Part shown: one piece after another, positions 22,113 to 47,233 of the stretch
Position numbering within the stretch: the first letter of the stretch is position 1
Layout of the letters: every line of letters begins with the position of its first letter
Source of the DNA: Pseudovirgaria hyperparasitica
Lineage: Eukaryota
Length of the DNA stretch: 64,000 nucleotides
Direction: 5' to 3' (one strand)
Assembly (NCBI GenBank): GCA_010093815.1
Contig: ML996570.1
The notes under the pieces: model-generated
Databases searched by the model: none
The model's input: only the letters and a program-made list of their open reading frames with translations
Told to the model about the DNA's origin: nothing
Made by a program: the position numbers and the translations under genes

Positions 22113-22340
22113 TATAAGAATAGGGTTATTAGATAGTAGTATAGTTAGATAGAATAATAGGGTATATTCTATTATAGAACGAATTACTACTAAACCCTTT
22201 TAGTAGGAATCCGAGAGTATATATATAAAGGGACGCCGATCTATCTAGTACGTAACTATTTACCGCCCTTTATATTACCTTCTAACCCTATTAGCTAAAG
22301 TATATATAGATTAGGTTCTACCTAAGGCTAAGTCCTAATA
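22113..22340 (-). repeat. 3' LTR of Gypsy A
   Basis: Direct repeat of 59932-60159, same length; TATAAGAATAGGG...CTAATA ends are consistent with RIPed TG..CA. Confidence 0.9.
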
Positions 22341-22791
22341 ATTATTCCTTCTCTCTAGGAAGCTACCCTTAGCGACCTAGATTATTATCTATCTCTATAT
22401 CCCTATTCTAAGTCTTATAAGACCTTAGTCGTTCTCTATACTTTATCTTAGATACTTACTAATATTTACTAATCTAAGATTTATATAAGCGTTTTTCTAA
22501 TAAACTAGATTTTATCTATCTTAACTTCTTATATAGGTAAGATTACCTAATTAGGCCTAGCGTATCACATAATATAATTAGATAAGCCTAGGTGCTACCT
22601 ATATTAAAATCTTTTCTTAGAAATATTCCTTTCTTTAAAAAACTTCATTAGGAAAGATACAGCGCTCCTAAGTACTCCTAAGTACTCCCTAAGTATTCTT
22701 TCATCCCATTATATCTATCGGGCGGACCTACTTACTATCTATCCTAACGGGACGGCTTTATATAATTTATACTAAGTATTCCGTTTATACC

Positions 22792-23581
22792 NNNNNNNNN
22801 NNNNNNNNNNNNNNNNNNNNNNNNNNNNNNNNNNNNNNNNNNNNNNNNNNNNNNNNNNNNNNNNNNNNNNNNNNNNNNNNNNNNNNNNNNNNNNNNNNNN
22901 NNNNNNNNNNNNNNNNNNNNNNNNNNNNNNNNNNNNNNNNNNNNNNNNNNNNNNNNNNNNNNNNNNNNNNNNNNNNNNNNNNNNNNNNNNNNNNNNNNNN
23001 NNNNNNNNNNNNNNNNNNNNNNNNNNNNNNNNNNNNNNNNNNNNNNNNNNNNNNNNNNNNNNNNNNNNNNNNNNNNNNNNNNNNNNNNNNNNNNNNNNNN
23101 NNNNNNNNNNNNNNNNNNNNNNNNNNNNNNNNNNNNNNNNNNNNNNNNNNNNNNNNNNNNNNNNNNNNNNNNNNNNNNNNNNNNNNNNNNNNNNNNNNNN
23201 NNNNNNNNNNNNNNNNNNNNNNNNNNNNNNNNNNNNNNNNNNNNNNNNNNNNNNNNNNNNNNNNNNNNNNNNNNNNNNNNNNNNNNNNNNNNNNNNNNNN
23301 NNNNNNNNNNNNNNNNNNNNNNNNNNNNNNNNNNNNNNNNNNNNNNNNNNNNNNNNNNNNNNNNNNNNNNNNNNNNNNNNNNNNNNNNNNNNNNNNNNNN
23401 NNNNNNNNNNNNNNNNNNNNNNNNNNNNNNNNNNNNNNNNNNNNNNNNNNNNNNNNNNNNNNNNNNNNNNNNNNNNNNNNNNNNNNNNNNNNNNNNNNNN
23501 NNNNNNNNNNNNNNNNNNNNNNNNNNNNNNNNNNNNNNNNNNNNNNNNNNNNNNNNNNNNNNNNNNNNNNNNNNNNNNNNN
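22792..23581. other. Assembly gap (790 N)
   Basis: N run; a second gap of 70 N lies at 32929-32998. Confidence 1.
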
Positions 23582-25559
23582 AGTTAGTAATAGACTTATT
23601 TATACTACACGTATATATACTATCATTTACCGTTCCCGCGGTTACTTAGAGCGGGTCTATACTTAATACCCGAGATAGTATAATCTTATCCGTAGCTACT
23701 ACTAGTAGTATAGAACTCTCACCTATATCTAATAGCGCATAAGATAATTTAAGGCACTTATCCAACTGGTTTAGAGTATCTAACTTATCCTTTTTATAGT
23801 AGTTAGTATCTATATAGTCTCTATAACTTTAGTATATACTTATATTACCCGATAGCTTAGACTCCTCACTCTTATCTAAGTTATCCATATCTACTTTAGA
23901 GAAGTCATCTAGGTTATCTTTATATGGGTTTATATATATAGTATCCGGGTTAATTAGTGTTAGTACTATAAATACTAATACTATTAGCGATTTTTAAATG
24001 TAGTTAATACGGTAGGGCGCCTAGTTCGACCATGTTAGGCTTAGTACTTGCTATTCCTCTATATAATTTAGCACGCGATTAGATAAAGGTATATATATAT
24101 ACCTAGTATTAGTAGAGAGCGTGTGAATCTATAGCGACCGAAGGACGAGTTCGGCGCCCGCCCGCTACTATATTCATTAAGGGCATGCCTTATTATAATA
24201 TATATAATAGTAATTATAGATGGTGGAATCGGTCGGAATATACTACTATAGTACTCCTTCGATCTAAGGAATCTCGGGGACTATAGTAGAACTAACTTTA
24301 GAGCCTTAATTACTACTAGCCCTACGAATATTTTCTAAGTTACGCTAGTATTATACTAATAATTAGTAACACGTCTAACACGATGTAAGTAATATACCTT
24401 TACTTCTATATACGCGTTATTATATATTAGGTTACTTATACTAGCTTTTCTCTTCTTAGCTATCTCCTAGTCCTAGTATTTAGATACTATCTATCTAACT
24501 CTAGAGAGGAGTTAGTAACGGAAGTCTATTATATCTTTCTTTACTAGCGTAATAATATAGGCGGGAGGTGTGTTTTATAAATTATAATTAAGGTAGTAGC
24601 TACTAAGATTAATATCTCCGGCGGCTATCTAGGCCGATTATACTAGTATCCTAAAACTATCTAGGCTACTATCTAGCCATATATTAAGGCGATCGAATAC
24701 CGGTGGTAACCGGCCTAAAAACGTCATGGTAATCAAAATCTCTATTATCGTAAGGTACCGGTCTCGTTCGTAAGGCTAGAGACTATCTCTATAGGACCGC
24801 CTCTTTTCACGGATAGTTAGTTCCCTCTCTACTACTATTTCTCTATCTTCTTCTATTAAGCTAGATAGCTAATATAGTAGAGGAGAGGACGTAAGGCCGT
24901 TATATCCCTAGTTACTATTACGGTAGAATGTTACCGTGACGTCTAAGCTATATAGGGCGTTACTACTATATTCGCTACTAGTATACCTAGACTACTAGGT
25001 TATTAGTAGATAAACGAACGCGTCGAGATAAGCTAGGTGTATATATACACGTTTTTTATGTCGATGGCTATCGTGTAAGTCCCTATTATTAATACTAATA
25101 CGTGTCTACGTTATATCGTATCTTCGTTTATCTATTCTATTTAGTTTACTATGGTTACTAGATTATCTTCTATTAGTGTTACCGCCACGGTAGCTAGATA
25201 GTCCCTTAACTATCTTCCGTGTTAGAGGTTCTATAGAGAAGATATATAAGAGATTAGTAGATATTTTTATTAGTAATAGGTCGGTAATCTACTAGGTAAT
25301 AATATTAGATAGCGGGATAATAACTAGCTAGTAGATACGATAAAGGTTTGGGCGTAGACTAATATAGTATTTTTATAGACGCGTGATACTTATACGTTAT
25401 TATTAATAATTTTAAGCGAGCGTGTATAGAAATTAAGGGGCTAAGAGCCGGGTAGAAGTCGGGGGTTAGTAGGTATATATCGGGCTTTCGACGGGCTTAC
25501 ACCTAACTTCTTCTAGTATACGCCTAGAATATCCGCCGTATACCGTATTATTACTATCT

Positions 25560-28500
25560 ACTAATAATTATACTATAGTATTTTTCCTTTATAGTAACTA
25601 TACCTTAAGATACTACGGGCCGTAGTCTTCTACTAATACTATAGTAGAAAGATTAGTAGTATATACTATATAATCCGCAGGCACCATAACTCGGAACTAT
25701 ATAGACGAGTACGGCTTACCGCATCGCTATTATTATTATAACTATTAGGCCCGTGGCTACCACTATTAACCGGGTTACGGCGCGGCTTTAGTACTTATAG
25801 TTATATTAGTCGATAGAACTCTTTGGTTCGCTCTATTAGTATTTAGCCGTCGAGCATTAATTAGGAGTCCGAGCCTATGGAATTAGGTACTTCTACTACT
25901 AATATTACCCTATATAAAGATACTACTATTTTCCCTAATTCTATTTCGGACCTAGAATCTATAGACAGCGTTACTAGTAGCTATAGTACCGATTTAGTAT
26001 ATTAGTCTAATATATATAGTAGAAATACTATATCCATGGCGATAAGGGTGTCTAGTACTATATATTTAACGAAAACGTTCAAAGAGGAGAGCGGTATATA
26101 TATTATAGTAGACTAGAGTAGACGTGATAATCCGTCCGACGTGAGTATATATAGTCTAGATTTATAGTAGTAACTAATTTAGTAGGCCCGATTCGGTTAA
26201 TTCGATAGTAAGTTTATAGAGCGCCTTATAATATAGACGAATCGGTTCGGTATTTCGAATGTAGTATATAATAAATTAACTACTATCCTTAAATAGACTT
26301 CCGCTATACCCCCCGACCTTTTTATACTAAAATCTAATATTATACGTAAGTAGTTATTATACTACCCTAAAGGGATACCGCACGAAAGTTAGTAGCGTAG
26401 CTACGATATATTCGGTACTACTATAGTCGAATACTAGTATAGGGATCCGCTTACGTTAGTGGAATTCCTCCTTAGATACCGACCGTTCGCTAGTAAGCTC
26501 GTATTTAAGCTAGTATAATAATTTACTAGTTTAGGCGACCGGGTATATAGTAAAGCCTATATAGTAGATAGTTAGTAGGATATATATACTACTATTCCGG
26601 ATAGTGCCGTCGTCGTCCCTATTATTTTATCTTTAGATAAGACGAACCTTACTAACCATAGTAGTAATAGAGTAGTATAGCTAGTCTACCTATCTATTTA
26701 TAATCTACTACTAAACGTCCGCTTATCTAGGAGTCTACTATTATTTCTACTACTTACTCTATTACTAGTAGTTAAGCTAGAAACGGTAGCGAATCGCTTT
26801 ATGTTCTATTAGGTTATAAGTAAAGTTCTAGCCCGTATATCCGCCCATGATAGAGTCGTTAACTATACTAATTATTATATAGCGTTATAGGCTATATAGA
26901 GTACTAGAGTATTAGTATTATATACCGATGGTAGCTCGTGTAAGTGCTATCCGCATTTAGCTTTATATATTATAGATTTTCCGGAGTAGGTACTTATCAC
27001 GGGTGTATCCTATCGGTATATATATCTAATATATATAGTCCCTAGTAATAGACGATAGTATCTACGAGAAGCCATTACTAGTATATAGGAGTTCTATATA
27101 TACTCGTCGTTATAGAAATAGATTTACCGTGTATATCGCGAGTTAATAACTAATAGCTATAGTAGTAAGTATACTAGTAGTAAGATAGATAATAGAACGA
27201 GTATACCTAGTGTCTTATCGTTTTCATTAACGTCTTTCGCGCTAGTAGTATAGGGCTATTATATTCGCCAATCGGTTAAGAGTTAGTATTCTAGTAGGTA
27301 GATAGAGCCATTGGATAATTTCGCCTAGTTACTTACTAGAGTTAATATATACCGCGCGGTCGCTCCGGACATTCTATATTAACTATATAAGGGTATATTA
27401 GAATATACATTTAATTGGATAGTCTCGTATATTATTAATTAAGAGCGTACGGGATATAAGTTAAAGGGTATATTTACCGGTATACCCTCTATAGAACGAG
27501 TAAAGAAGGCGATCGATAAGCGATTCGCGTCTATTAGGGCATTTAGTCGTTATAACCTACTTACGTATATAACTTTAGTAATATAATAGATAGGGGCGAT
27601 GTTTAAGCGTATACTAGTAGTGTTCATAGTCGCGTTTAAACCGCTCCTATATTATAATCGACACTTCCTAAGCGTAGTACGGGCGGTTATTAATATATAC
27701 ATATTAGCGGCGTACTATACGCATGATACATAGATACTAGTATACTTAGAAGAGGCTATATTACGCTTAGACGACCTGAAATACTAGTTTACACCATATT
27801 ATGGAGATAAATCGGAGGATAATTATTTTAACTTTCCGAAGTTCCATGTATTATTACACCTAGTTAATGCCATTAAATACCATAGTTCGTTATATCTAAT
27901 ATTAGTAGAGCTACTAGAGCGATCTCATGTCGTAGTAAAGGAATTATATTAAGGTTTAAATAAGAGGGAGACGTTTCTATAGTAGATGCTAGTAGTAGAT
28001 ATACGCACGATAAATACTAAAATCTCTAGTAGTATAGAGGTGGCGGCTAGTACTAGTATATTAGTAGCCTCTAGCCTAGAGTAGCTTAATAATGCACGTA
28101 AGCTAGTCGGCTAGCGGCGTATTCTAAAGGAGCTACGCCGGAGTAAATATACACTCTACGTCTTATAGAGCTATAGACTATCTACGTCCTACTAGACTAC
28201 TATTAGCGACCTCTACGACGTGTATAGTAGTAGTTTTATATTACTTAATACGGTTATACCCTTTATACGTAACTATCGTAATCAGCTTATTAGGGATAAT
28301 ATATTAAAAGATACGAATATCGAATATATTAAAAAGGACCCTTCGTAGGCACGGGTCCTTTCTATCTATATATATAAGACCATACACGTGCCGATATAAC
28401 TAGATAGAGATATATCTATAGAGGCCTTCGACCTAATTCGGGTAAGGTATATCTATAACTAGTAAAAGAGTAGTAAGGCTAGAGAGGATTATATAATAGT

Positions 28501-28936
28501 ATAGAAGTTTAATAAGAGTAATAACCACCTTAACGGGAAGCGGGTTAGTAAAGTCTATATATTTCTAGAGGTATATAATACGGAGAGTATTAACGTAACT
28601 AGTAGTATAGCGGCGCGATTTCTAGATACGTTAGTTAAACTACTTAATAACTCGGATAGAGGTAATATTAATACCATTAGTAGCCTTATACCATTACGTA
28701 TAGCGGGTTAAAGGTCTAGTAATAAGACTTATATAATAGATAGGTTCCGTGTCTACGAGCTAGAGCATGTCCTACACCCTATATAGATTATATCGTGTCG
28801 GTTAGTTACGGATAGTTTATTCTAGTTAAATATATATAGTAATTAGGGGATCTATAACGAGGTATATAACCTAGACTTCTAGGCTATAAATAGACGAAAC
28901 GTGACCGTAGCGTTAAAACACGGGCGCGTATCGTAA
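25560..28936 (+). pseudogene. Plavaka transposase (RIP-mutated; start approximate)
   Basis: De-RIPed motifs in order: VVPIILSSDKTNLTNHGGDRVAWPVYLSI (~26612-26700), LASYIADFPEQVLITG (~26957-27004), APDILHQLHKGVL (~27362-27400), FNFPKFHALLH (~27827-27860), DLIRVRCIHNWQKSG..REDCVMV..NGKRVGKV (~28430-28555), and FWLNVYSDWGIYNEVYDPDF (~28820-28880); stop at 28934-28936. Confidence 0.85.
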
Positions 28937-31900
28937 GTCTATCGCTATCTACCGCCGCCTACCGTAGTATGCCGGCATATACCGGTATATACCGGAAGTT
29001 ATAGTTTATATATAGTAGTACTTAATAGTCGTATCCTATACTAGGATATCTCTAAGGAATAATCGTGGTTTATTATAATCGGTTCTATAAAAGGCTTATA
29101 TTTAATGACTATCTATAATTTTAGCTAAGGAGTATCTAGGGATGCACCTCCTTATTACCTAATGATTACTAGCTAGTATAAAAACTCCACGCCTCTAAAA
29201 GGGGCATATAGAACTTAAAGGATCCTTATTTACGGGTAGAACTAGACACGGATAGTATTAACCTAATATAGATAGATTATATATATTAATACCCTGAAAT
29301 CCGAACTATATCTCTAGGCCTACTAGACCTAGCTCGTATCTAATTCTAATGTTTTCGTTATTCGCGTTTATGCCTCGTTAGATACCGGGTATATAATAAG
29401 TCTATAGTTAAGTAAGTGTTAGGTACGTAACGAGTCTATTAATAAATAAGTGCCGGGTATATAACGAGTCTATGTAAATAAGTATGAATGAGTATATGCC
29501 GGGTATATAACGCTCTTACTAGGGAAACGTCTTCCTTAAGTATCTCCCCCTTCTAATGTTTCTCCTTCTCTTTCTTTATTCTTTCCCTAGCCTTATAAGT
29601 ATAGTTAGACTTATATCGCTATATTATTAATATATACGTTCTTATATAGACCGTTAGAAACTACGGTAACTAGATATACGTTCTTATAATAGATAAATAT
29701 ACTATACTAATGCGTCGTATTGTTCGTGTTTAATATAAGGGTTCGCTACTATAATCATTCGTTATTACGCTCGTCTATCTCTTCTTAACGATGGTACTAA
29801 TTAATAACGACCTATTATAGAGATAATAGTTAGTATTACGTACTTCTCTTGAATATTCGTATATTAATATTACATGAGTATATGCTTTACGGAGGTCCTC
29901 TATCCTTCCCTCGAGCTATCTAGACTATCCCCTAATTACTAAAAACTCTTATATCTAACTATTTCTACTATTTATTCCTCGGTTCTACTCGTTAGACTTT
30001 GAACGATAGCGAACCACGACGGGTTAGCGGTTATCTATATTTCGTGTACGCCGAGTTAGCATGCCTAAATATAATAGATAATAGTATATTTATAATAGTA
30101 TATACTAGATCTCATAGTATTCCTCTTTAGCGGTAGATCTATATGGTTATAAAGATAGTCTACTATTCTATCGTGCCTATATACTACGCTACTCTTTTAT
30201 CGTATATAGATGGTATTACCGGAGTAGGGCTATTACCCGGTAAACTTAACGTTGTATATAGAGTATTATATATTTAACGTCGTTATTTCACGTGCCCTAT
30301 ATTAGTGCGGGATCGGATACCGGCCGTATATTTCCCCGCCTCCATTAAATTAACGAGTTATTACTAATAACTATACGGACTACTTGCGTTAATATAGCCG
30401 TAACGTACGTGTTATACCTACGCCTATTATATAGTATATATGTCTCGTCTCTCTATTACCCTAGTAATATATACTATTCCCTATTCCGTCTACCTATAGC
30501 TACGTCTAGCCAGCCGCGAATAAATAGCCGAGTAGAAGCGAGTCTCGACCTACTTTATATATTTAGAGCGTCTAATAGGTAGAAACTTCGGGTATATATA
30601 GAAGAGTTAATTTAGAAGGAATTTACTAGTCTATTACTAAACCTATATAGTAAGGAAGTAAAGGACCACCATATAAAACGAGAGTGTTACCTATAGACGG
30701 TCGCGGATAAATATATATTTATTAACGGTAGTTATACTATTTCACGGGTAGATGCCATATATTAACTTAATACTATATTCTTAGTATTTACGCGTAACTA
30801 GCGGCGGTTAGCTAAATACTATTATATACGTTAAAACGATGCCCCGGGCTAGACGAGCCGTCGTGATATTATATATACTCTATAAACCCGCCTAATATAT
30901 CTAGCTAACCTAGTTATTCGACCGTCGGACTACTAGTATCTATATCTTCTAAGGTAGCCGTGCCGCCGTGTTATATATATATATCTATAGTCCTTATCCG
31001 CGATTATACTCGGGTCACCCTAGTACTAATGACGGCTATATAGAATAGTATAACGCCGTTAAATATTAAGGGTATAAAAATACGCGATATAGCAGGTCTT
31101 AGTATAAATAAACTATTAGAATTTATTAGCTTATCTATGGATATACTAGGGGACGTAGGCGGTTATAGGCATGGTCGCGTCTACCTAGAGTACCTAATTC
31201 TACTAAGCGAGTCGAGTAATATAATCCTTCGTAAGGATAGTTTAGACTAGGTATTATAGTAGGCTATTAAATAGGTACTAGGCTTAGGACTAGATCAGGT
31301 GGTTTTCCGCGTGGGCGATATAAATGGTATATTTAGAAGTCTACTATAACGTATTAACTATAATCTAACCATATAGGAACGTCGCGCTATAAGTATAGTA
31401 GTAGGATTTATCCGTCTAGCGCGCGTAGGTAAGCTCGAGATATATATACGCCGATAGATATCGGTATATATCGATATATTATAACTACTAAGCGGTGTAT
31501 ACTAATGTATGCCGGTATATCCGGTATATACTAGTATAATACTATCGCTCTTCCGTGGATATAATACTATTTATATATCTTAGGTTTTCGGTTATCGGTT
31601 ACGTATAGTATTATATATACGGCGGATACCTTACTAGATTTAGGTCTTTCGTTAATAGTATATAGGTACGCCCTAGTCTACTTAATATAGGCGTAGTCGA
31701 CGCTTTACCTACTTAAATAATAGACGTTAATAACGACGCGACTAGTATATTTATCTATTATATTATTAGCTAGCTAACGTTATATTAGGAGAGTCGAGCG
31801 CCGCTATCCCGCCTACTCTACCCGTTAATATTAACATGCTAGTAATTATAACCTAATCGCCTTACGAATCGATATATAATGCCGGTACACTCGAGAGTTC

Positions 31901-32773
31901 GAGCGAACGTGTAAAAGTCTAATATTATATACTATTTAGGGCCGGGGAGGAAGCGCCTACTAGCGTAGTGGTTATTAAGGCGATAGTAGAAGTCTATATA
32001 TAACTAGATATACTAAGTCCGCCTCCTTCTTATGTGGTCCCATCGCTAGATAATATTACCGGTTTCGATATTGCGGGAGAGGAGTTTATAGATACGAACC
32101 TATGAATATTAGTATAACATCGGCTCGATAGTACGTATTATAGCATAAGGTAAGTTATATTTAAGCGGTAGTTAGACACGTGCGCTAGTATACTAACGGA
32201 CATATAGTGTCTCTACTATGAATAGAATAGATAAGGCATAGCTAGTAATATCTTACTACCTAGAAGAGATAGTTACCGTAGAATTTAGGAGATAGGCTCG
32301 GCGTCTATAGCGTTAGTATATCGGACGGTTAAACTTTTATATAACACTATTTATTTATATCTATATTTACCTAAGCTCTAATTCGATAGCCTTCTATAAC
32401 GTACTATATACTTAGTCGGCGAGCTACTAGACTCATATAATAGTAGTATACTACCCCACTTTATATACTACTTAAGCTACTATTACTTTAGCCTACGTTA
32501 ATCTTAGCTTCCTTTAGTCGTCTCTATATTATAAAAGAAAACTTCTATAAACCTTTCCTCTACTTATCTTGGTTTTTAAACCTAAATCTTACCTTCTATA
32601 CTTTATTCCGTGTTAATTATAACTATATACGAACGCTACGTCGAACTCGACTCTATTAACCCTTAAGGTCCATTCTATATAATAGTTAACGAGGTTATAT
32701 TTATAGTTTATAATATAGATTAAGAACTCGTTACATTCGGTGATATTTAGGACTAGTCTACGCTCGACGTAAT

Positions 32774-33056
32774 TAAGCCTTATGTTTAAGCCGAGTCTTA
32801 CGTTTAAGTCGAGCCTTACGTTTAAGTCGAGCCTTATACTTAAGTTAAGCCTTACGTTTAAGCTAAGCCTTATGTTTAAGTCGAGCCTTACGCTTAAGCC
32901 GATCCTTACGTTTAAGCCGAGCCTTACGNNNNNNNNNNNNNNNNNNNNNNNNNNNNNNNNNNNNNNNNNNNNNNNNNNNNNNNNNNNNNNNNNNNNNNCC
33001 TTACGTTTAAGCCGAGCCTTACGTTTAAGCCGAGCCTTACGCTTAAGTCGAAGCTC
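32774..33056 (+). repeat. 18-bp tandem repeat (CCTTACGTTTAAGCCGAG)n spanning a 70-N gap
   Basis: At least 11 visible units. De-RIPs to CCT CAC GTT CAA GCC GAG (PHVQAE), probably a coding repeat upstream of the helicase core. Confidence 0.85.
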
Positions 33057-36000: not shown

Positions 36001-37045
36001 CCCGACTACTCGCCTTACCGAGTTAGAATACTTAGTTCCTAGAATAATAAACATTATATTACTAATTACTTACTCGGGCGAGCTAACGACCTTACTCTAT
36101 ATAACGAATAATATTAATATACTACTCGCAGAGACCGCTCGATAAATATTTAGAATCCGTAGCTATTAATACGTCGTATACGCTAACGTTAACGGGGATT
36201 ACGCGTATACGGTAAATAACTTAATATATAATATAGACTTATTACGTTTCACTTAGTGGATTATTACCGAGCTCTTCTATTATAGCGTCGCACTCGATCA
36301 CGTGCTCTATATTTCTATATACGCCGCCTAACGTAATCTATTTAAAGGGATAGTTAGGAACTCGCTTCTAACTACACTTACTGTAGCGGATAAAGCTCGA
36401 TTTAATACCCTACCTAAGCCGGTATAGAAGCTTATCCAATGGCGTTCATGGGACGGTTCTTAGGGTTATAATAATAATATAGTCCTTATCGACCTAGTCT
36501 AAACTAATCACTTCGGCTTCCTCTTAGAAGTAAACCATAATATCGTTACTATTACGCGCGCTAAATAGATAATAGTTATTATCGCTAACTTCGTATCTCT
36601 TAAGAGGTAGAAAGTCCTAGACGGCGTACTCGGCGAGATATAGAATAAGTACTCTAAGATTCATGCGATATACACGTGCACGACCCCCGACCTAGATGGC
36701 CTCCCTCTACTCTCTAATATACCTAATCCCTAATATAGTCGCTCTATACTTAGTGTTAGAGAGAGGGGAGAACGAAGCGATTAATAAACTACCGATAGTA
36801 CTAAGCCCTATAAGCCGCTAGTCTACCGTAAATATAACGTCGAAGGATATAAGTCTATTAAGTATCTAAGAGGGTCGATACTTATATATAATAACTATTA
36901 GGACATCGGCCATAAAGCTAATGTTTACCCTAAACCTAAGACGCTTAAAGGTACGTTTTACTATAATTATAGAACTACCGGTTATACTCGGCGTTATTAT
37001 TCTAGCCGTACTAAATTACTAGCATGTATAAATAGTAATGATCTA

Positions 37046-37135
37046 GTTAATACTACTAGAGCTAATACTACTAGAGCTAATACTACTAGAACTAATACTA
37101 CTAGAACTAATGCTACTAGAGCTAATACTACTAAC
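37046..37135 (+). repeat. 15-bp tandem repeat (TAATACTACTAGAGC)n, about 6 units
   Basis: Directly visible; probably a coding repeat (NTAGA-like) after the zinc knuckles. Confidence 0.8.
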
Positions 37136-39949
37136 GAAGTAACTACTAGCGGCTAGGACGATAGAGACTACGAGGATGCCGACCGAGACGGCGGTGTTAT
37201 AATATATAAAGACATGGAAGTCAATTAGTAATAGTATATAATTAGACTTACGTGTTAGGGCTACTTAGTCACGGCTTCTTAGTAAGTATACCTCTATATC
37301 TATTTTAGATATAGTTATAATATCCTACTAGATAGATAGTTTAGCTCTATTAAAGACCTATTAAGGGTATTTCTATCACGTCTACTCTAGTATAGACGCG
37401 CTATTAGATAATACGGCGCCACTAGACACGTTAACTAGTACCCACCGATTAAGAAATAAACACGATTCTATATCTACTATAAGCCCCGGCCTAATAACGT
37501 AGGCTTCCTTTGGTTATCCCCTTTATACTTTTAAAACTACTTCTAGCCTTTATATCGGGAGATATTACTATCTAAAGAGAAAATATAAAAAAATATACGC
37601 CCTAATCAAAGCCTCTATCTTTAGACTTTAACCATGATATATACGGGATATAGTAAACCTAAATATCGTGTACTTTAAAAGCATGGAAGGATATAATACT
37701 TAAATACGACGAAATATAGGCTTACGATACTCGGAGAGTACCTAGGGATAAGTATATAAATATAAAATGGGATAAGACTAACGCGGCACCTTATATATGT
37801 GTAGCCATATACCGTCCTAGACGTAGTCGCCTATAATATAATATTACGAGATAAGAATCATAGCTATCTAATTCTATTAAGGGTATTAGACGACATGAAG
37901 TAAATAACCACACGTCTAACCACGCCACGCTAAGTCACGTGCGTGTTATAAACGCGTATTCGAGGAATAATAAGGATATAAACGAGGTTCACCTAGTAGG
38001 TGCCTCGTTATTCCAGCTTCTACCTCTATCGTCCGACCTATATCTCCGTCTTTCTCACGCCTATAATATACTATATATATACTATATAATTAGTCTATAA
38101 ATTATAAATACTATATTAACTATACACGTTAACTATATATGATTAATATATCGAATCCGATTCTATAATAAAGTAACCGTCCGAATATAGTAATTACTAT
38201 AGTACTACTTCGTATCTTAAGTCTAGATATATAAGTAAAGCGTAAAGCTATGGAGGCGTGTATAAGGTAGCTATATATAGAAGCATATACGGCTACTCTA
38301 CTTATAGACTATAGGCGTTAAACTAAGAATAAGCTTAGCGTAAAAAGAGCACGTAAGATTATTAATAAGGTAGCGGGCGAATTCCTAGTAGTATAGGAAA
38401 GAGTAGTAGAGTGCATAGAGATGAAGGCGCTATACTATATCTACGACTAGGTACGCACTATAGTATAGAAAACCGTATATTATAGAAAAACTATCTCCGA
38501 GTGTAAGAAGAGGCGCGTAATTATAGCCCTATATTCTATAACCTTATAACCCCCGTCTATCACGACCTTATAGCTCTCGTATACCACGACCTTATAGTCT
38601 ATACTCGCAGCGGTCCCACAGCCCACTAACGTATATACTATAAGAAAAATCAAATTTATGATTAGGTTCGAAGATAACGCATTCCTCGAAATACTAGTAC
38701 CTACGTCTAACTAGTAGAAAGACCATAGCGACGCTTCGTATATTAATTCGGTAGTATTTATACGGCGAATTAGAGTCTAATACGTAACGAAGACTAGGAG
38801 GGCACTTAACTAGAGCCGTGCTACCATGTATTCTATTATGCTAGTAGTCGAGTATACGATAAGTAAAACGGAACTAGAGATAGATATTAGATGGCTCCTA
38901 TAGTTAGTAATCGAATGTATCCTAGAATATAGTAATAGTGTAATACTCCTTAGCCTTAGATAGGATATAGATAGTATACCTAAAGTAAAACGAAATATAA
39001 ACCAGCGACTAACATATAATAGCATAGACGGCTATATATAGGTTACGCTTAAATAAATCCGCCCCTCCGTCCCTAATGCTATACTCACTATAATTAGTAT
39101 AATAATAGTAATAGAAAGCTACCGCCTATGACGGTAGAGATACCTATAGAGATAGTATTATAGGTAGTAGATAGCATTACCTAAACGACTTAACCCTTTC
39201 TCTAGCGATACTATATATACTACTATCGGCACTCGGGAAGTCGCGAGACCGATCTATAAGCTCTAAAGATAGTAACTTCGAAAGCCTTAAAAGTACCTTA
39301 GATATAGAGGATATAGATATCGCTTTTAAAGACTAATAGGATAATAAAAAGGGTGCTAGAGACAGTAAGAGTAGCGTGTATACTTAGCTAAGGCGATACA
39401 ATCTAACGTAAGACGGCTTCTACCTACTATATATTAGTATATACCCGATTCTACTAGCTATATAACTATAGTATATATATTCGGTTAAGACGTTACGATA
39501 CTAGTATAAGCCGGCGTCTACCTAGTTTACGTCGGGATACGCCCGGTCCTACTAGCTATATTATTACTACGACTATAATTATATAAGATCTACTCTAATA
39601 ATTAAACATTTACTTATATACTTTACTTCCTCCGTACTTATTAAAATTACGTTATAATTACTAAACGCGGCGACTTAACTTCTACCGCCTAAATCTAGTT
39701 TTTATATCTTGTCGCCATTAACGCCGTCTTACTATCTATAGCCTAAGTCATATATAGGAATAGATAGGTATAACGAGAGTCACGACTATCCTAGTTTAAC
39801 TACCAGCCATAGAATAGCTAACTATAACACGTATATACGACGTGCGGAGGCCTTAAGCGTTAGCGCCCTCCTACCTTACATCTAGTACCTCTAAGGCCTA
39901 TACCTAATACCCGAAATAAGTCATGATATATATAGGGCTACTATTATTA

Positions 39950-42900
39950 AGATAGTAAGTAAAGAAGTAGTAATAGAGCTTAAAACTAGTAGTATAGACA
40001 CTACTATACTCTATAGAATAGTTAAGGAAACTATTACTAGAGAATTCAATTGGCATATCGCGGCTATAAATAGTAAGTTAGTACCGACGGTTACGACCAT
40101 AGATATAATAGAGGCTAAACTAGACATAGACACTATAGGCATAGGTACGTAGATATAGTTACCGCTAGAATATAAGGAGAAAGATAATGTGGAAGATGCT
40201 AAAATGGAAGACGACGCAGCTAGTATACTTAGATACATATATACATACACGGTCCTAGATACTAATATTAGAGTAGTATCGAATATAGGCGCGGTTATAA
40301 CCACCGATATAGATAATCCATCTATAAATATCGTCGTGCCTAGCGAAGCTTATCTACGTATAAACACACTAGCTATAGAGACATAGTTATAGTTACCGTT
40401 AGAATATACGGAGAAAGAGAATATAGAAGATACTAAAATGGAAGACGACGTAGCTAGTATACTTAGACATATATATATATATATATAGTCCTAGATACTA
40501 ACATTAGAGTAGTATTGAAGATAGGTGCGGCTATAACTACCGATATAGATAATCTATCTATGAATATCGTCGTGCCTAGCGAAGCTTATCCACGCGTAAA
40601 CATACTAGCTATAGAGATATAGTTATAGTTACCGCCGGAATATACGGAGAAAGAGAACGTAGAAGATACTAAAATGGAAGACGACGTAGCTAGTATACTT
40701 AGACACATATATATATATATAGTCCTAGATACTAACATTAGAGTAGTATCGAAGATAGGTGCGGCTATAACCACCGACATAGATAATCCACCTATGAATG
40801 TCGTTGTACCTAGCGAAGCTTATCCACGCGCAAATATACTAGCTATAGAGATATAGTTATAGTTACCGTCGGAATATACGGAGAAAGAGAACGTAGAAGA
40901 TACTAAAATAGAAGACGACGCAGCTAGTATACTTAGATATATATATATATACATGGTCCTAGATGCTAACATTAGAGTAGTATCGAAGATAGGTACGCCT
41001 ATAATTACCAATATAGATAATTCCCCTATAAATGCCGTCGTGCCTCTAGATACTAGTAAGACTTATCTATAGCTACTAGAAATAAAGAGGACACTCTTAG
41101 ATAATATAGTAAACCTGGTCGATTCTCCGAAACGCCCAAAACTAGAATATATTATACTACTAGATGTCGACCGGTAGACACGTGAAAACCAGGAACTATT
41201 CGGGTTAGTAGATAATTTATATAGTAGATATATATCGGATAGTATATTAGCGAACGGCCTTAACTTTAAAATCCTTTCTATAGACGATGACTCTAACGGA
41301 GATAAAGCAAAGCTAGATATAGAGGACTTAATTCTAGTAGATAATGATGTTAGTACGAAACTATAGAAAGCGTAAGTTATACTAAGAAGTAAGTAGGAAT
41401 ATATACTACCATACTAATATACCTATAGAATATTCGCCGTTAATAACTCCGATAAAGTAGTCTAAGCTATCTCTTATTATATAGAAGAGATACGGTTACT
41501 TACTATAAGTATATTTAGGCTTACGCTAGACGACCTAATAAAGGAGTTTAGCTATACACCCACTCTATATCTAGCCTTTAGTATAAGTAGGTTATATAGG
41601 CCATGGGCCGGCTAGTTACTTACGGTAGTTACTATATTTAAGTAGCGGGCGGGTCCGTGGAAGTGCTAGATCTTAGTAGATAGTCTAGGGCTAGGAAAGA
41701 TAATTATGCTTATAACGTTCATCCGCCTCGCGTTTTATTAGAACTTTCTACGCGATAATATAGAACTTAATCTAGAAAATCACCTATAACCGACTTAAGA
41801 CTCGGGCATAGATAGAAAGTGCCCGATATAATCTCTATATCCGATTAAATGTCCGTGTAGCTAGACCGATAATTTCGTCTATATACCCCGCCTTCAAGGA
41901 CCATTTATACTATACTACCTAAGGTCCCTTCTAATAGCGTATTGGCCGTAGCGCTTTAAATAGATATATAATAATACGGATAGCATGTTCACCGATTAAA
42001 TTAATAAACGGAACCCGATAAAGATAATAGTACGGCTAGCGTACTTAAAAACCCTTACCGACGCCCCTAGTATCCAATAATTCTCGTATATAGACTAATA
42101 ATACTTAGCTAAGAGATGCCTACACCCCGAATGGGAATATAGCATCGATATTAGTAATACTACTAAATTCGAGACCAACGAGGAGTATATTATTAGGGCA
42201 TGGTTAATTCCCGTTAATAGGACCGCTACCACCGAATTTCCGTCGCGATACGCGAAGAACCATATAATCTATAGCACTATCTAGAGTATAGAACCCTAAT
42301 ATCTTAAATCTTTTAAGGGACGCGTAGTTATAAGAGTAAAGAGGGCGAAATAATTCGGTACTAAAAACACTTAAACTTGCAAAGTAGTATTCCTTAGTAT
42401 ATTAATAGTAGACGAGTTCTATTCCGTAAAGAACCCCGATATAAAACAGTATAAATATATGATATATAATACCCTTATATTTAGTATATGGGTTAGTATA
42501 ACGCCCCTCTCGAATAGTCTAGTAGATATTCTAGCGGCTATCGAGGCAGGTGCTCCGGATAAGTTACCCGACTATATTAACGATAATACTACTAAAAGGG
42601 TATTCGAGAGCCTATAGAATAAAACTATAAGGAAGATTATTATAACGTGGTTAAATAAACTCCTTAGTTTAATAAAAGGTAAGCCGGCGGACACGATAGC
42701 CGCGATAGTCCGTAGGGCATTAGAAACCATAGAAGGTAAGCGCACACTACGTATAGTAGCCGATTAGTATTTACTATTCATTCTATAACGGGGACTACTA
42801 ACTAAATAGTTTAACGGAGAGGCATGTCTATCCACGACATTAAAGCTAGTAGTAGAGTTTATATCTATCCCGGCTATAGAACTAGAGAAGATAATTATAT

Positions 42901-43900
42901 AGTCATACGAGAATAGAGGTAGATAGTTTAATAATCCATAGCCTAATAGAACGCCGCGGGACTCGTAGGTATAATCTACCGCCTAGAGTAAATTAAAAGG
43001 GGGTACCGGGTCCGGGCTTAACGCATACTACTATTAGGCTAGGCTAGCTACTACGTGTATACTACTTATATACCTTACTAATAAAAAGATAGAAGACGAG
43101 TAAATTAATATCACGCTTACGCGTCGGAGGGATAGTAATAATAGTATACTAAGTAAGATAATTACTAATCCCGTACGCGAAGCGCTTCTATAGCTAGATA
43201 AGGCTATATAAAAGAAGATAGTATCGCTAGCTAATAAACACGCTTCGAAGGTAAACTAGATCCGTAACTTTATTAATAATAATGTTTATAATAAAAGTAC
43301 TAGACACGCGCGATGAATATCCGCTAACTACCCGGAGAAAATCGTACTCGTATATACCGTACTAGTAAGCTTAATGTTTCTATACTTAGTAAGTGTTTAT
43401 ACTACCTACTAGTAACGTAATTTACTAATATATATAGGTACTACGTCCATATGCACAAGCGAAAATATTAGTATATTTACTAGCCGGCCTAAGTACGTCC
43501 GAATTAAATAAGGTATATAGATTATTTAGGTCGACCAAGTCGGATTCTCCGTGTATTCTACTAGTATTAGCTTTATAGGTCTACGAAGGATAAGACCTAA
43601 TAGTCGCCGGTTTTATAGTATTAGTAGACTAATGCTTACGTAAGGAGACGTGGCCGTAGGCAAGCATAAGATATTATCGCCATGAATAATATCGGCCTAT
43701 AGTATATGCGTATACTTTGATTTTAGACTATTTAGAGGTCGAGGCTAGACTCGCCGCGTTAGGTAAGGTAATCGAAAGCACGAGAATATAAGCCTTAGAC
43801 CTAGGAAAAGGAGATACAGCTACGGTAGAGATAGCCACACCTAACATGCTAGTAATAGGCGTACGCTTTAATCCCATAGAGATATAGTAGTATAGAAGTA
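39950..43900 (+). pseudogene. SNF2-like (SF2) ATPase/helicase (transposon cargo; limits approximate)
   Basis: De-RIPed motif I ILADGxGLGKT 41670-41702; Ia GPFMLCCPRSLL ~41899-41934; II VDEFHSVKNP ~42408-42437; III WVSATPLSNS ~42489-42518; V/VI EGQDLMVAGFVVLVD..QASIRYHRHEQ ~43585-43690. Intron GTAAGT..ACTAAT..TAG ~43388-43437. Confidence 0.78.
40156..41045 (+). repeat. 234-bp tandem repeat, about 3.8 units
   Basis: Units start TAGTTACCG at 40156, 40390, 40626 and 40860 (spacings 234, 236, 234). The ORF track shows repeated MEDD(A/V)ASIL..VLDTNIRVVS. Confidence 0.92.
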
Positions 43901-44029
43901 AGTAAGGTAGTCAGTCAATTAGCTTCTAAGAGACTAGATAGCATAGTAGTATAAATACGAACCGCTATTTACTCGTGATTACATGTCTATATATATCTAT
44001 ACGTGAAGAGAAATAAGATATTTATTCTA

Positions 44030-44560
44030 TACCGTTATATAGTAGAACGTTACTATATATACCGGCATATAACGGAATATTCTAACATACGCCGGTATAT
44101 TATAGGATATTCCTAGATACTCGAAGTATAGTCGTAGTATAAAGTAGCATTACTATTATATGCCGGCATATAGTAGGACGTTACTATATATGCCGGTATA
44201 TAACGGGATCATATTCCAATATACTATACGCCGCCGGTATATTATAGAATATTCCTAGATACTCGAAGTATAGTCGTAATATAAAGTAGTATCACTATAC
44301 TATGCCGGCATTTAGTAGGATATTACTATATATACCGGTATATAACGGGATTAAACGTTTTCTTAACGTTCGATAGAATAATTCTAAAAGAACCGGGACG
44401 GCTCTAGAAGAACTAGGACGACTCCGGGAGGACTAGGACGACTCTAGAAGGATTAGAATAACTCTAGAAGTACCAGGACGACTCTAGGAGGATTGGGATA
44501 ACTCTAGAAGTACCGGGACCCATTTGGGATAACTTTAGAAGTACCGGGAGACCTAGAAGC
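44030..44560. repeat. Subterminal repeat arrays of the Plavaka element
   Basis: A ~130-140 bp unit repeated about 2.3 times (44040, 44171, 44313), followed by at least six 20-bp units like GACTAGGACGACTCTAGAAG (44391-44520) next to the TIR. Confidence 0.85.
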
Positions 44561-47233
44561 ATTGGGAGCGCCGTATCTTTCCTAATGTTCTTAACTCTTT
44601 ATAGAGTTTTTTAGATTATTAGGTATATTATCTAATCCTTATAGATATAGATTTATATAGATTTACTATAATTTAGTACGATTTACGTAATTTACTAATT
44701 TTTATACTATCCTTAGCTAGTAATAATATAATTCGTAATAATCTATATAAATCGGTAATAATTATAATATGGTTTCCTAAAATCTTAACGCTCTAAAGTA
44801 ATTAGCGCGGAAATAGACGCCTTTAAATAATCCCTATCTTATATACGTTACTAATATATTAAAAGCTATTAATCTACTCTAATCTAAGCCAGGCTCTAAT
44901 AATCTAGCTATATATTATTATAGTTATCGCTTTCTATCGTATATTACTTACGGTAGTACGAAATCTATAATATATAGTACTTATATAACTAAGAAGCGTT
45001 ATTACTTATAAATATTTAAGTAAGTTTAAAGAACTTTACGTAGATTTACTTATATCGGTATAGATTACTACTAGGCCTCTAGTAACCTCTACTAATAAGA
45101 AATATAGTACTACTAATCGTAACGCCTTAGAGAAGGCTTTCTATAAGCTATATATCTAAGGTAAGAGTTACGCCTAGGAGTATGATTCTAATAAGATCCG
45201 TAAGGATTTATTAGAATCTACTATAGCTATTATTACCGCGATTACTAGATAATATCGTTTTTCTTAAATTATTATAGATTCTTACTAATATATATTAATC
45301 TCTATAATAGTACTAAAATCTCTACTATTTCGGACTTCTTTCTATATACTAGTAATATTAAAATTCCTAGAAAAGGTTCTAGTAAAAAGGCTAAGGTTCC
45401 TTCCTTATATATGCTAAAGAGCTATAAATTTAGGGAAGATAGCTCTAATCTAGAAGTTTCTATACTAAAGGTATATGGTTCTATACTAATCGTTAAATCT
45501 TTTTACTAATTTATATAATTCTTAGCGTGCCTACGCCGGTCCGTCCCTCTCTATTCTAGGTCCCGTCGCTCTATAGGTTTCTATAAAGGAGTTTATAGCT
45601 ATAAGGCACGCTATATAGAATTTATAGCGTCGGAACGAAAGGCTAGAGACTTATATTATAAAGCTCTATACTATACTAAATAAGAACTAGCGGAAGGAAT
45701 TAGATATAACTATTGCGGTAATTAGTACTTCTACTTCTACTCCGACTTAATTAGTTTAGATCTATACTAATTAGTACTAATATATTTCTTTTATCTAGCG
45801 TTTTTAGTTTTCAGTTTTAATTTTAAAGTAATCTTACTTCTTCTAGATAGATTAGTATAAATTTATATAGATCTATATAGATCTTTATATTTTCTTTTAG
45901 CTTTCTTAATTTTATCTTTCTTTAATAATAACTTCTTTAATCTCTTTAGTAATCTATACCGATCTATACCGATTAGCACCGATTTTTAATATCTATTTCT
46001 CTTAGTAAATTATTTTTCTAAGTCTCCTTTTTAGTTAAATTTTTTAAAGTTCTAAGTTTAAACTTTCTAAGGAAGTTCCTTAATTCCTTAGAATATTTTA
46101 AAGATCTATATCTCTTTTACCTTCTTCCTTTTAGGCGGCTATCCTTAGCGCCGAACTATACTAAAAAACGTTAAATCGCTATACTTTAGTATAATTCTCT
46201 ATAATTCTACGGCTTCCTTTATTAATCGCTACTTATATACTAATATCGCTACTTTACTAATATTTATTATAGGTTCCTAAGTATCTTCATTAGGATTATA
46301 TTCTTTCTAATAAATTTTATATAGCTATATACTATCTTCGGCGCGTTACTAGCTAAGTATCTACTTAACTTTATAGATATCTATATCTTCTTACGTAACT
46401 ACTTTATATAGTATCTATTTAGAATAATCTAGTAATAATAAGGCATGAAATAGCTCGAGAAGTATAATATAGAATATATTATATATCTTTAACGTAGGAG
46501 GGAGTTATAACTTATATATCTAGTTATTAATTATATAAGTAATCTTATATAGATCTATTATTATATAGTTAAGCTTCTTCTTTAGCCTAATACTATAAAT
46601 ATTCTTACTATTTAGTAAAACTTTATCTCTAATATTAAAGATTATAGGTTTTCTACCCTTATTATAGTGCGATTTACTATAATCCGTAGTATCTTATAGT
46701 AACTTTATAACACTTCTTTACGTTTAGAATAGTTCTATAGTAATTTCTATTACTTTAATATTAGGTTATTCTACTTTAAACTAAGTCCCTAAGAACTATA
46801 TATTATAGTTCTAACTAAAGTTTACTTTAAACGGACTTACGTAGATTAACGTATATCGGCTATTATTATATACGAATTCCGCGATATAGACTAACCTTAT
46901 CTAGTTATTCTACTTATAGTTATAATATACGCGTAAATACGCCTTAACTATCTAATTCTACCGCTCCGTCTATCTATCTATTTATAGATAGAATATAGTA
47001 CTAAGTTTCCACTTAATTTCTAGCGTATAGTAGAAATTCTTCTAAAATTTAGATATTATCTACGGATCTCTATCTAAAACTATACTATTTAGTATACTAT
47101 AGAGCCGAACTACGTTATAGAGTAGTATATCTATAAGATCTAGTACTTAGATCGTCTTTCTTATAGGGATATAGTATAATATCTTTATAAATCTATCTAG
47201 AACTACGAGTAAACTATTATAAATATACCTAGA

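Follow-up and report, generated by a model that had tools for sequence, protein, structure and literature searches.

Results

Organization of the locus

Within the window, that is the entire 64-kb stretch of DNA that was analyzed, positions 22646-44587 are occupied by a DNA transposon of about 22 kb. It combines a Plavaka-type transposase and a DUF6532 gene with long frames of an SF1 helicase and a SNF2-like ATPase, all in decayed form (Table 1). The transposon sits in a Ty3/Gypsy LTR retrotransposon, Gypsy A, as the initial annotation had proposed, and a strand, the minus, can now be assigned to this host element. Gypsy A retains a pair of LTRs (22110-22340 and 59929-60159, 90%), RT and RNase H domains in 56123-59928 and a Tf2-type SH3 domain in 44588-48039, and is broken twice, once by the Plavaka element and once by another LTR element, at 48040-56122. 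A DNA ligase 4 encoded in the flank shares 100% identity with a protein of the Dothideomycete Pseudovirgaria hyperparasitica, which together with the signature of repeat-induced point mutation (RIP) supports an ascomycete host. This fungus has been described as parasitizing rust sori (PMC3317363), and its genome size is reported as 35.44 Mbp (PMC12910237).

Table 1. Features of the Plavaka element and its host retrotransposon (window coordinates)
Feature	Position	Strand	Basis
Host Ty3/Gypsy LTR retrotransposon (Gypsy A)	22110-60159	-	LTR pair and domain searches
Target site duplication, left copy (TT)	22644-22645		Empty host sites with one TT
Left TIR, begins CATTA	22646-22671	+	Inverted-pair search (pair I11, 26 nt, 92%), direct reading
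Left subterminal 10-bp array, CTCCTAAGTA x3	22665-22695	+	Repeat search
790-N scaffold gap, 146 bp inside left end	22792-23581		N count
DUF6532 gene remnant, RIP-degraded, divergent from transposase gene	23900-24901	-	PF20149 match
Plavaka DDE transposase frame, RIP-degraded	25601-28600	+	PF18759 profile match, motifs
4.2 kb spacer	28601-32775		RIP indices and depth match those of genes
18-bp tandem array, spans 70-N gap, abuts helicase frame start	32776-33059	+	Repeat search
70-N gap	32929-32998		N count
SF1 (UPF1-like, AAA_11/AAA_12) helicase frame, RIP-degraded	33050-37198	+	Profile match, HMMER hits, motifs
2.9 kb spacer, without recognizable domain	37199-40125		Domain searches
Tandem repeat, 3.8 units of 234 bp (78 codons), in frame with downstream SNF2-like frame	40126-41045	+	Repeat search
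SNF2-like ATPase frame, RIP-degraded	41100-43799	+	Motifs, sub-cut-off profile match
Right subterminal arrays (142-bp unit 44023-44351; 20/40-bp unit 44374-44519)	44023-44519		Repeat search
Right TIR, ends TAATG	44562-44587	-	Inverted-pair search, direct reading
Target site duplication, right copy (TT)	44588-44589		Direct reading, empty host sites with one TT

Ends of the element and its insertion site

The left TIR reads CATTAGGAAAGATACAGCGCTCCTAA from 22646 and has its inverted counterpart at 44562-44587, with 24 of 26 positions complementary and both mismatches being transitions. This is the highest complementarity among the 25 listed out of 269 inverted pairs. A 15-mer from these ends, CATTAGGAAAGATAC, occurs twice in the 64-kb window, exclusively at the two TIRs and in opposite orientation, and reached a count of at least two in none of 100 shuffles. 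Four contigs of the same organism (from run X2 of the contig comparison described below) fit the window from 44588 onward and are preceded by AGAAATATTCCTTTCTTTAAAAAAC, which is window 22619-22643. These uninterrupted host copies read ..AAAAAAC-TT-CTTAAC.., with a single TT, and hence the 2-bp target duplication is real. Moreover, the host sequence immediately outside the left TIR is the same as that found ahead of 44588 in the intact copies, and both TIRs therefore bound one insertion at one site. The 26-bp TIRs starting with CATTA and the TT duplication of the initial annotation are thus borne out, and the check it proposed, contiguity of Gypsy A across the site in uninterrupted copies, gave the expected outcome. 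Inside the element we found neither an LTR pair nor a convincing TIR pair, the inverted pairs there being AT-rich ones of 70-81% complementarity.

The subterminal tandem arrays noted earlier are likewise present at both ends. A motif, GTACTYCTARR, is seen once within the left array (22672-22682, plus strand) and in three inverted copies on the right (44463-44544, minus strand). All four matches in the window lie less than 130 bp from the ends of the element; the motif was derived from these same ends, and its count relative to shuffles is therefore inflated. Of the internal arrays, the 18-bp one is bridged by a contig of run X1 that joins 32808 to 33000, and the 234-bp repeat differs in copy number among copies of the element (a joint of 40129 to 40834; summed depth of 39.7k in its bin).

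Transposase and DUF6532 genes

With stops read as X, the transposase frame matches the Plavaka profile PF18759 at 92.1 bits (cut-off 26.3, E 5e-26) over 26420-27013, confirming the transposase that had been recognized from its motifs. These are SLDKT (26624), DFPE (26966), PDIL (27362) and FNFPKFHVLLH (27821). Read by eye, the sequence after DFPE continues with YLIY (TAT..TAT), which could be a decayed C-x2-C, and then with HVLLH (27845 region) and LVELLE. Word-based searches with this frame gave no scored relative. Upstream, a DUF6532 domain overlooked in the initial annotation is encoded on the minus strand at 24140-24562 (PF20149, 31.9 bits against a cut-off of 24, E 4.6e-6). The earlier description of the cargo as same-strand consequently holds for the helicase and SNF2-like frames, which lie on the plus strand, but not for the DUF6532 gene. 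In the six frames of 23582-44587 we found no domain of another transposase, of an RT or of an integrase, and in those of the 4.2 kb spacer (28601-32775) no recognizable domain.

Helicase and SNF2-like frames

The helicase frame spans 1,383 codons with 68 stops. Its AAA_12 domain (36164-36589) scores 25.6 bits (E 1e-5), slightly below the Pfam cut-off of 27, and all six HMMER hits obtained with the frame carry both AAA_11 and AAA_12, which supports the earlier assignment to SF1. A Walker A remnant is discernible at 35027-35065 as G-Y-R-G-A-R-K-S, where AGA is readable as a decayed GGA, and the C-terminal end holds two decayed CCHC knuckles (36881-37006). The matches are ordinary AAA_11/AAA_12 helicases and include a protein named for Aspergillus multicolor. 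The best shows 26% identity across some 240 residues; none among 1.84 billion representatives reaches E 1e-10 in a homology search whose sensitivity is lowered by RIP decay.

For the SNF2-like ATPase, the translation displays motif I (LGLGK, 41670-41708), motif II (DEFY(H), 42402-42437) and motif III (42486-42521), followed by a Helicase-C-like part from about 43330 that the Helicase_C profile does not match in this frame. The SNF2-rel_dom profile yields 17.2 bits against a cut-off of 24.9 (E 0.0028), and the best PDB match is CHD1L (E 0.25), aligned on motifs II-III. These features are suggestive of the SNF2-like ATPase that had been claimed, and we retain the assignment tentatively.

RIP across the element

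RIP makes CpA-to-TpA changes. The five gene and spacer segments of 23582-40125 and the SNF2 segment have an index (CA+TG)/(AC+GT) of 0.20-0.28 and a GC of 0.35-0.37. The index is 0.27-0.42 in the short left end, the tandem repeat and the right subterminal segments, and in the host Gypsy element it is 0.11-0.14 with GC of 0.28-0.29. Each plus-strand frame of the three has roughly 5 stops per 100 codons (transposase, 5.6 over 25850-28549; helicase, 4.9; SNF2-like, 5.4). Both indices and stop densities agree with the uniformly heavy RIP across the cargo seen previously. The copy at 22646-44587 is not functional, every reading frame having been destroyed by RIP.

Other copies in the same organism

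Contigs of the same organism were compared in two runs, X1 and X2, at a likeness of at least 80%, covering 24888-44887 and thereby all of the element except its left 2.2 kb (22646-24887). This region was matched by 17,879 contig pieces in X1 and 9,221 in X2. The differing places in X1 comprise 415 C>T, 418 G>A, 253 T>C and 224 A>G changes, with at most three of each transversion type and no indels listed. Summed depth, which is not copy number, ranges from 14.3k to 29.2k in all but one of the 29 bins that lie inside the element, the exception being the tandem-repeat bin, and is 113k in the final bin, which extends into the host Gypsy. Variants at single places in X1 are carried by 10-25 distinct contigs each: 13 at 25678 in the transposase, 19 at 28992 in the spacer, 25 at 34502 and 19 at 36138 in the helicase, and 17 at 42144 in the SNF2 frame. 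The sequence from 24888 to the right end hence occurs many times in this organism, and the near-pure transition differences along with the flat depth over transposase, cargo and spacers indicate that the whole unit is a multicopy family. What had been a guess in the initial annotation is now directly supported by contigs.

A break shared by four contigs at 31894 (among 12 of 613 loose-end rows listed) and a 143-bp skip (33917-34061) found in both runs point to structural variants among the copies. No second copy with both ends and cargo joined was seen, as no contig spans 24888-44887, the listed pieces being of 140-212 bp. The unity of the element is supported by the flat depth, by the uniformity of RIP and by the lack of ends in the interior.

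Discussion

Relationship to known elements

The element shares with CACTA/En-Spm transposons a related DDE transposase clade, subterminal repeat arrays and a two-gene core; these differ in having CACTA termini, 3-bp target duplications and Transposase_21/23/24 rather than the Plavaka Pfam family. Giant cargo elements of Pezizomycotina are usually discussed as Starships, which are mobilized by a tyrosine recombinase (DUF3435), are far larger than the present element and are usually low-copy. No DUF3435 'captain' is present in the six frames of 23582-44587, and we rejected an identity as a Starship.

Among Plavaka elements, target duplications are given as 2 bp for PlavakaA and as 2 or 3 bp for PlavakaB of Agaricomycotina, the latter with termini CATCA..TGATG (Kojima 2025, PMC12730594). 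PlavakaB resembles the element in its Plavaka transposase, 2-bp duplication, TIRs beginning with CAT and genes between the TIRs, and, judging from the start of one supplement sequence, in its short T-rich subterminal repeats (PMC12730594). Its termini differ from CATTA..TAATG by one CpA-to-TpA, i.e. RIP-type, change per end. The ancestral ends may have been CATCA, although the second CpA would then have changed at both ends and the first at neither. Further, PlavakaB carries a TET/JBP dioxygenase in Agaricomycotina (PMC12730594), as opposed to an SF1 helicase with CCHC knuckles and a SNF2-like ATPase in a Dothideomycete with RIP. Plavaka elements of Tuber are also from an ascomycete, with a 2-bp duplication and TIRs starting with CAT (5'-CATAC-3'), but from Pezizomycetes rather than Dothideomycetes (PMC12581995). 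Giant Plavaka elements of 17.4-19.1 kb with accessory genes are described from the red alga Bostrychia; these are similar in their transposase, in having several accessory genes, one of them with tandem repeats alongside, and in being high-copy and mostly degenerate (bioRxiv 10.1101/2025.02.11.637652). Their accessory genes are different, namely PAG1 (unknown), PAG2 (N6-adenine methylase and SET) and PAG3 (ParB-like N-terminal domain and 2OG-dependent oxygenase domain), (same preprint), and their host belongs to a different kingdom, with RIP being absent. Plavaka elements with a 2-bp duplication and CAT termini, as well as giant cargo-bearing ones, are therefore already known, and the earlier suggestion of a possibly undescribed family stands with respect to the Dothideomycete host lineage and the helicase and SNF2 cargo, which are new, but not to the kind of element. 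We found no description in the literature of helicase-type cargo in the Plavaka group.

Origin of the element and of its cargo

We consider it very probable that 22646-44587 represents a single copy, inactivated by RIP, of a family of about 22 kb that is of Plavaka lineage, is present in high copy number and carries an SF1 helicase and a SNF2-family ATPase. The Plavaka match, the TIRs and the 2-bp duplication support the earlier view of a DDE-driven element with defined ends and carried genes, and the evidence suggests a placement among the CACTA/EnSpm-related DDE transposases, with an end structure closest to PlavakaB. The transposase would have recognized the TIRs and subterminal motifs, excised the element and inserted it where the target had been cut with a 2-bp stagger. 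The product of the DUF6532 gene, which is transcribed divergently, may have assisted, an idea drawn from the second protein encoded by CACTA elements. A family master copy would have carried, between its TIRs, the helicase with its two zinc knuckles and the ATPase as passengers. The family would then have expanded to tens of copies before RIP destroyed all reading frames. Rather than adaptive cargo for the host, the two proteins may have been accessory to the element. They might have acted on chromatin at the ends of the element, by remodeling or unwinding it, or have opposed silencing by the host.

A different origin of the cargo, in which ends and family are as above but the element picked up the helicase and SNF2 genes from its host, as transduplicated passengers with no role in its own life, is possible though on balance unlikely. 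DNA transposons do capture host genes, and the helicase matches are of the ordinary kind. The distance of the best match nevertheless leaves no host parent visible, with the caveat of lowered sensitivity under RIP, both frames are long, whole-looking and on the transposase strand, and Plavaka elements are known to carry accessory genes that modify chromatin or DNA (PMC12730594; bioRxiv 10.1101/2025.02.11.637652).

It is also conceivable that the locus is a composite of a smaller Plavaka element (TIRs, DUF6532, transposase) and unrelated inserted mobile elements bearing the helicase and SNF2 frames, amplified never as a whole or only after nesting. We regard this as improbable. The 7.1 kb of interior without a recognizable domain, the structural variants at 31894 and 33917-34061 and the inability of short contigs to prove contiguity in other copies would fit it. 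Against this, depth varies no more than twofold across 28 of 29 bins, variant contigs are about as numerous in the transposase as in the spacers, the helicase and the SNF2 frame, the RIP indices, like the stop densities, are uniform, and internal ends or a second set of mobility domains are lacking; had nesting preceded amplification, the unit would still have acted as one giant element. Highly unlikely is a scaffolding artefact, by which the left end of 146 bp and the body of 21 kb stem from different copies or loci joined over the 790-N gap, so that the 21.9-kb length and the content adjoining the left end would be unreal here. The gap lies close inside the left TIR, a multicopy family invites misjoins and the contig comparison started only at 24888. 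Yet the host element is coherent across the insertion, its two LTRs pairing with each other, and the letters left of the left TIR recur before 44588 in uninterrupted host copies, so that an artefact would concern just the length and content of the gap.

Biological implications

The single-family reading preferred here puts a 22-kb DDE cargo element, reaching tens of copies, in a Dothideomycete, in contrast to the tyrosine-recombinase Starships. As the copy is dead, its value is comparative rather than functional, for transposon classification, RIP dynamics and the annotation of AT-rich blocks. Its helicase and SNF2-like module extends the short list of chromatin- or DNA-modifying Plavaka cargo, which so far consists of TET/JBP in mushrooms and methylase/SET and ParB-like/2OG-oxygenase proteins in red algae (PMC12730594; bioRxiv 10.1101/2025.02.11.637652). 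Plavaka transposase and DUF6532 families have been reported from basidiomycetes, and rusts hold CACTA-superfamily elements (PMC12210899). A bolder and rather unlikely scenario is that of an undescribed giant Plavaka lineage with the helicase and SNF2 proteins as an anti-silencing or self-mobilization kit, acquired horizontally from the basidiomycete host, multiplied to tens of copies and then silenced by RIP. The life of this fungus on rusts makes such transfer across phyla directly testable, given a consensus of the family.

The AT-rich block and its nested elements

The window consists of GC-normal, gene-bearing parts (1-21 kb and from 60.4 kb) and an intervening AT-rich block of 39 kb. RIP indices in this block are strong, with TpA/ApT at 1.5-1.9 versus 0.46-0.84 in the gene-bearing bins and (CA+TG)/(AC+GT) at 0.08-0.36 versus 1.04-1.41. 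The indices shift sharply near 21 kb and near 60.4 kb, and 21000-60400 comprises three nested mobile elements flanked by the GC-normal gene regions. An intact minus-strand gene for DNA ligase 4 (11522-14479) is 100% identical to a Pseudovirgaria hyperparasitica protein, its next-best matches being from other Dothideomycetes and allies (57-63% identity). This identity and the RIP signature confirm that the organism is an ascomycete. P. hyperparasitica is, according to PMC3317363, a mycoparasite of rust sori, and its reported genome is 35.44 Mbp (PMC12910237).

Self-comparison of the window recovered 20 matches, two of which are direct pairs of the LTR type. The pair framing Gypsy A (22110-60159), along with minus-strand Pfam matches to RVT_1 (E 7e-16), RT_RNaseH_2 (E 6e-12) and, at some distance from these, an integrase SH3 domain of the Tf2 type (E 2e-6, 28 bits versus a cut-off of 30), identifies the host element as a minus-strand Ty3/Gypsy retrotransposon; no Pfam match was found in its plus-strand frames. 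It is interrupted by the Plavaka element (22646-44587) and by a second LTR element (48040-56122). With GC 0.39 and (CA+TG)/(AC+GT) 0.25, the nested LTR element is less RIP-worn than the host Gypsy (GC 0.28-0.29, index 0.11-0.14), which is the most mutated of the three layers and thus fits being the oldest. Two further sets of direct repeats occur, one inside the host Gypsy (47233-47385/47707-47859, 153 bp, 85%) and one just beyond it (60159-60242/60333-60415, 84 bp, 93%).

Features of the Plavaka element and the surrounding LTR elements (window positions)
Feature	Position	Strand	Details
Direct pair, host Gypsy	22110-22340 with 59929-60159		90%
Direct pair, second LTR element	48040-48276 with 55886-56122		237 bp, 93%
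Tandem array adjoining left end	22665-22695		
N run	22792-23581		790 N, just 146 bp inside left end
DUF6532	24140-24562	-	PF20149, 31.9 bits (cut-off 24)
Transposase frame	about 25.6 to 28.6 kb	+	
Plavaka transposase domain	26420-27013	+	PF18759, E 5e-26, 92 bits
Internal tandem array	32776-33059		18-bp unit
N run	32929-32998		70 N
SF1 helicase frame	33050-37198	+	1,383 codons; AAA_12, E 1e-5, 25.6 bits (cut-off 27)
Internal tandem array	40126-41045		234-bp unit x3.8
SNF2-like ATPase frame	41100-43799	+	
Tandem array adjoining right end	44023-44351		
Tandem array adjoining right end	44374-44519		

Termini and the empty site

The element begins at 22646 with CATTAGGAAAGATACAGCGCTCCTAA and finishes at 44587 as its reverse complement. 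The 26-nt TIRs are 92% complementary, both mismatches being transitions, and they rank top among the best 25 of 269 inverted pairs, the rest of these 25 being AT-rich and 70-88% complementary. The first 15 TIR bases have exactly two occurrences in the 64 kb, one per end and inverted relative to each other, a count reached in none of 100 shuffles. The ends proposed in the initial annotation are hence real, and the subterminal tandem arrays it described are present at both. The motif GTACTYCTARR has four matches in the window, none farther than 130 bp from the termini: one on the plus strand at the left end and three on the minus strand at the right end; four matches were reached in 0 of 100 shuffles, though this count is flattered by derivation of the motif from these same ends. 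A metagenome scan with a degenerate 20-mer of the TIR gave eight loci (GC 0.45-0.64), none sharing more with the element by BLASTN; these were rejected, also as being near chance by a rough estimate, given the degenerate pattern and large collection.

TT adjoins the element at either end. In one of two DNA runs compared with the window (X2), four contigs match from 44588 onward and are directly preceded by AGAAATATTCCTTTCTTTAAAAAAC, the 25 letters of window 22619-22643 that adjoin the left TT on its outer side. Gypsy A therefore reads ..AAAAAAC TT CTTAAC.. in other copies, with a single TT and no insertion. Thus, the host is contiguous over the junction, and the TT that had been read as a 2-bp duplication is a true target site duplication.

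Gene content

All six reading frames, with stop codons written as X, were compared with Pfam. The Plavaka transposase of the initial annotation is borne out by a strong domain match, and the SF1 helicase by an AAA_12 match just below its cut-off and by the profile matches described below. The proposed arrangement of all genes on the same strand does not hold, as a minus-strand DUF6532 domain, divergently oriented to the transposase, had been overlooked. CACTA elements are two-protein systems, and by analogy the second transposition factor here could be the DUF6532 protein. DUF6532, Plavaka and KDZ domains are listed together as present in two Ganoderma species, which is mere co-listing (PMC8955403).

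The Walker A remnant of the helicase reads G-Y-R-G-A-R-K-S, both of its AGA codons being one G-to-A step from GGA. Likewise, its C-terminus has two C-x2-C-x4-H-x4-C knuckles in which cysteine positions read TAT/TAC, one step from TGT/TGC. A 15-bp tandem array (37048-37133, x5.7) lies in frame in the C-terminal tail, giving TRANT-like pentapeptide repeats. A HMMER search with residues 200-1383 against 1.84 billion representative proteins returned six matches with E of at most 0.001, none of which reached E 1e-10, the best having E 1.4e-6 and 26% identity over about 240 residues. All six, one of them named for Aspergillus multicolor, carry AAA_11 and AAA_12, which confirms the superfamily of this predicted helicase; the alignment to one match (P0007) is confined to the AAA_12 part. 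No close intact relative, nor any intact copy from this genome's proteome, was present in that library; a relative about 50% identical before RIP would be expected to score far better, even with RIP lowering identity. Word-based protein searches with the RIP-damaged transposase and helicase each scored 0 of 7,999 candidates, which is uninformative since RIP leaves few exact 5-residue words intact.

In the frame of the claimed SNF2-like ATPase, motifs I (LGLGK), II (LIVDEFY-VKNP) and III (TPLSNSL) are visible, but SNF2-rel_dom reaches just 17.2 bits against a cut-off of 24.9, and the best solved-structure match, CHD1L, has E 0.25, albeit aligned exactly on motifs II-III. Taken together, this is moderate evidence that the frame encodes a SNF2-like protein. 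Six-frame Pfam scans of the element found no recognizable domain in about 7.1 kb (28.6-32.8 and 37.2-40.1 kb), no TET/JBP domain, and no reverse transcriptase, integrase, second transposase or tyrosine recombinase. Divergent 'PE-type' dioxygenases are reported to have been found solely by HHpred (PMC12730594), so one such protein may hide in the domain-less sequence. A zf-SCNM1 match (E 0.084, 13 bits) was rejected as noise.

Copies of the element

The initial annotation had taken the whole unit to be multicopy, and contigs of two DNA runs, X1 and X2, provide the strongest evidence for one unit. Both come from one sample (organism A), contain the right-hand 10 kb of the element and are possibly the source data of the window's assembly. 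The comparison covered 24888-44887 at a likeness of at least 80%, the left 2.2 kb of the element lying outside. Matching pieces numbered 17,879 in X1 and 9,221 in X2; among those of X1, 6,042 were at least 99% alike, 5,111 were at 95-99%, 5,242 at 90-95% and 1,484 below 90%. Differing places are almost all transitions (in X1, C>T 415, G>A 418, T>C 253, A>G 224; each transversion type at most 3), and no indels were among the differences listed, a pattern resembling many RIP-diverged copies of one family. Distinct X1 contigs carry variants in the transposase (25678, 13 contigs), the spacer (28992, 19), the helicase (34502, 25; 36138, 19) and the SNF2 part (42144, 17). Inside the element, 28 of 29 bins have a summed depth of 14.3k-29.2k, and the bin with the tandem repeat reaches 39.7k. 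Depth leaps to 113k in the last bin (44231-44887), which extends into the Gypsy flank, about five times the Plavaka family's roughly 20k in X1; the host Gypsy family is probably a dominant repeat of the genome.

Composition agrees with one multicopy unit: (CA+TG)/(AC+GT) is 0.20-0.28 and GC 0.35-0.37 in five gene and spacer segments (23582-40125) and in the SNF2 segment, with indices of 0.27-0.42 in the short left end, the tandem repeat and the right subterminal segment, and stop density in the three plus-strand frames is 5.6, 4.9 and 5.4 per 100 codons. Inside the element, self-comparison and the inverted-pair search revealed neither paired LTRs nor a credible pair of TIRs. As summed depth is itself no copy number, we divided it by the 160-320 of single divergent contigs; with the contig counts, this gives a rough figure of tens of copies. 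Structural variants exist among these copies: at 31894, four X1 contigs have different preceding letters (a break among the 12 of 613 loose ends listed), and one contig in each run skips 33917-34061 (143 bp). Given these breaks, the stretch compared and the listed piece lengths of 140-212 bp, none of which spans 24888-44887, no other single copy was seen with both ends and all cargo.

Relationship to known Plavaka elements and possible roles of the cargo

PlavakaA and PlavakaB families, reconstructed from Agaricomycotina, are described with a 2-bp TSD and TGT..ACA termini and with a 2-3-bp TSD and CATCA..TGATG termini, respectively, and some carry TET/JBP genes (Kojima 2025, PMC12730594); in that paper 'helicase' occurs once, with reference to Helitrons. 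The termini of our element, CATTA..TAATG, differ from those of PlavakaB by one CpA-to-TpA change per end. RIP would make such a change, and the ancestral terminus may have been CATCA, but the first CpA is intact at both ends. The Plavaka elements reported from a Tuber genome have TSDs of 2 bp and 5'-CATAC-3' TIRs (PMC12581995), and giant Plavaka described from a red alga are 17.4-19.1 kb long and carry three accessory genes with adjoining tandem repeats (bioRxiv 10.1101/2025.02.11.637652). Hence, both ascomycete Plavaka and giant cargo-bearing Plavaka are already published; Plavaka is also given as a major repeat class in a Marasmius paper. In the sources covered by a limited literature search, we found no description of Plavaka in Dothideomycetes or of one with an SF1 helicase or SNF2 ATPase.

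The original observation is confirmed, and its interpretation as a DDE (Plavaka) cargo element is supported: the element is one copy, inactivated by RIP, of a multicopy DNA transposon of the Plavaka lineage that is roughly 22 kb long and has a 2-bp TSD. Besides the transposase and DUF6532, its gene set comprises an SF1 helicase bearing CCHC knuckles and a SNF2-like ATPase. The TIRs, inverted subterminal repeats, DDE transposase and small TSD make cut-and-paste transposition, as for the family, the natural mechanism by which it would have moved. Its arrival by horizontal transfer from a rust host, bringing a self-serving chromatin module, appears improbable. The helicase and SNF2 genes might be captured host genes; since Plavaka elsewhere carry genes acting on DNA or chromatin, we favor their being accessory genes that serve the element, and they may have remodelled its own ends or countered silencing.
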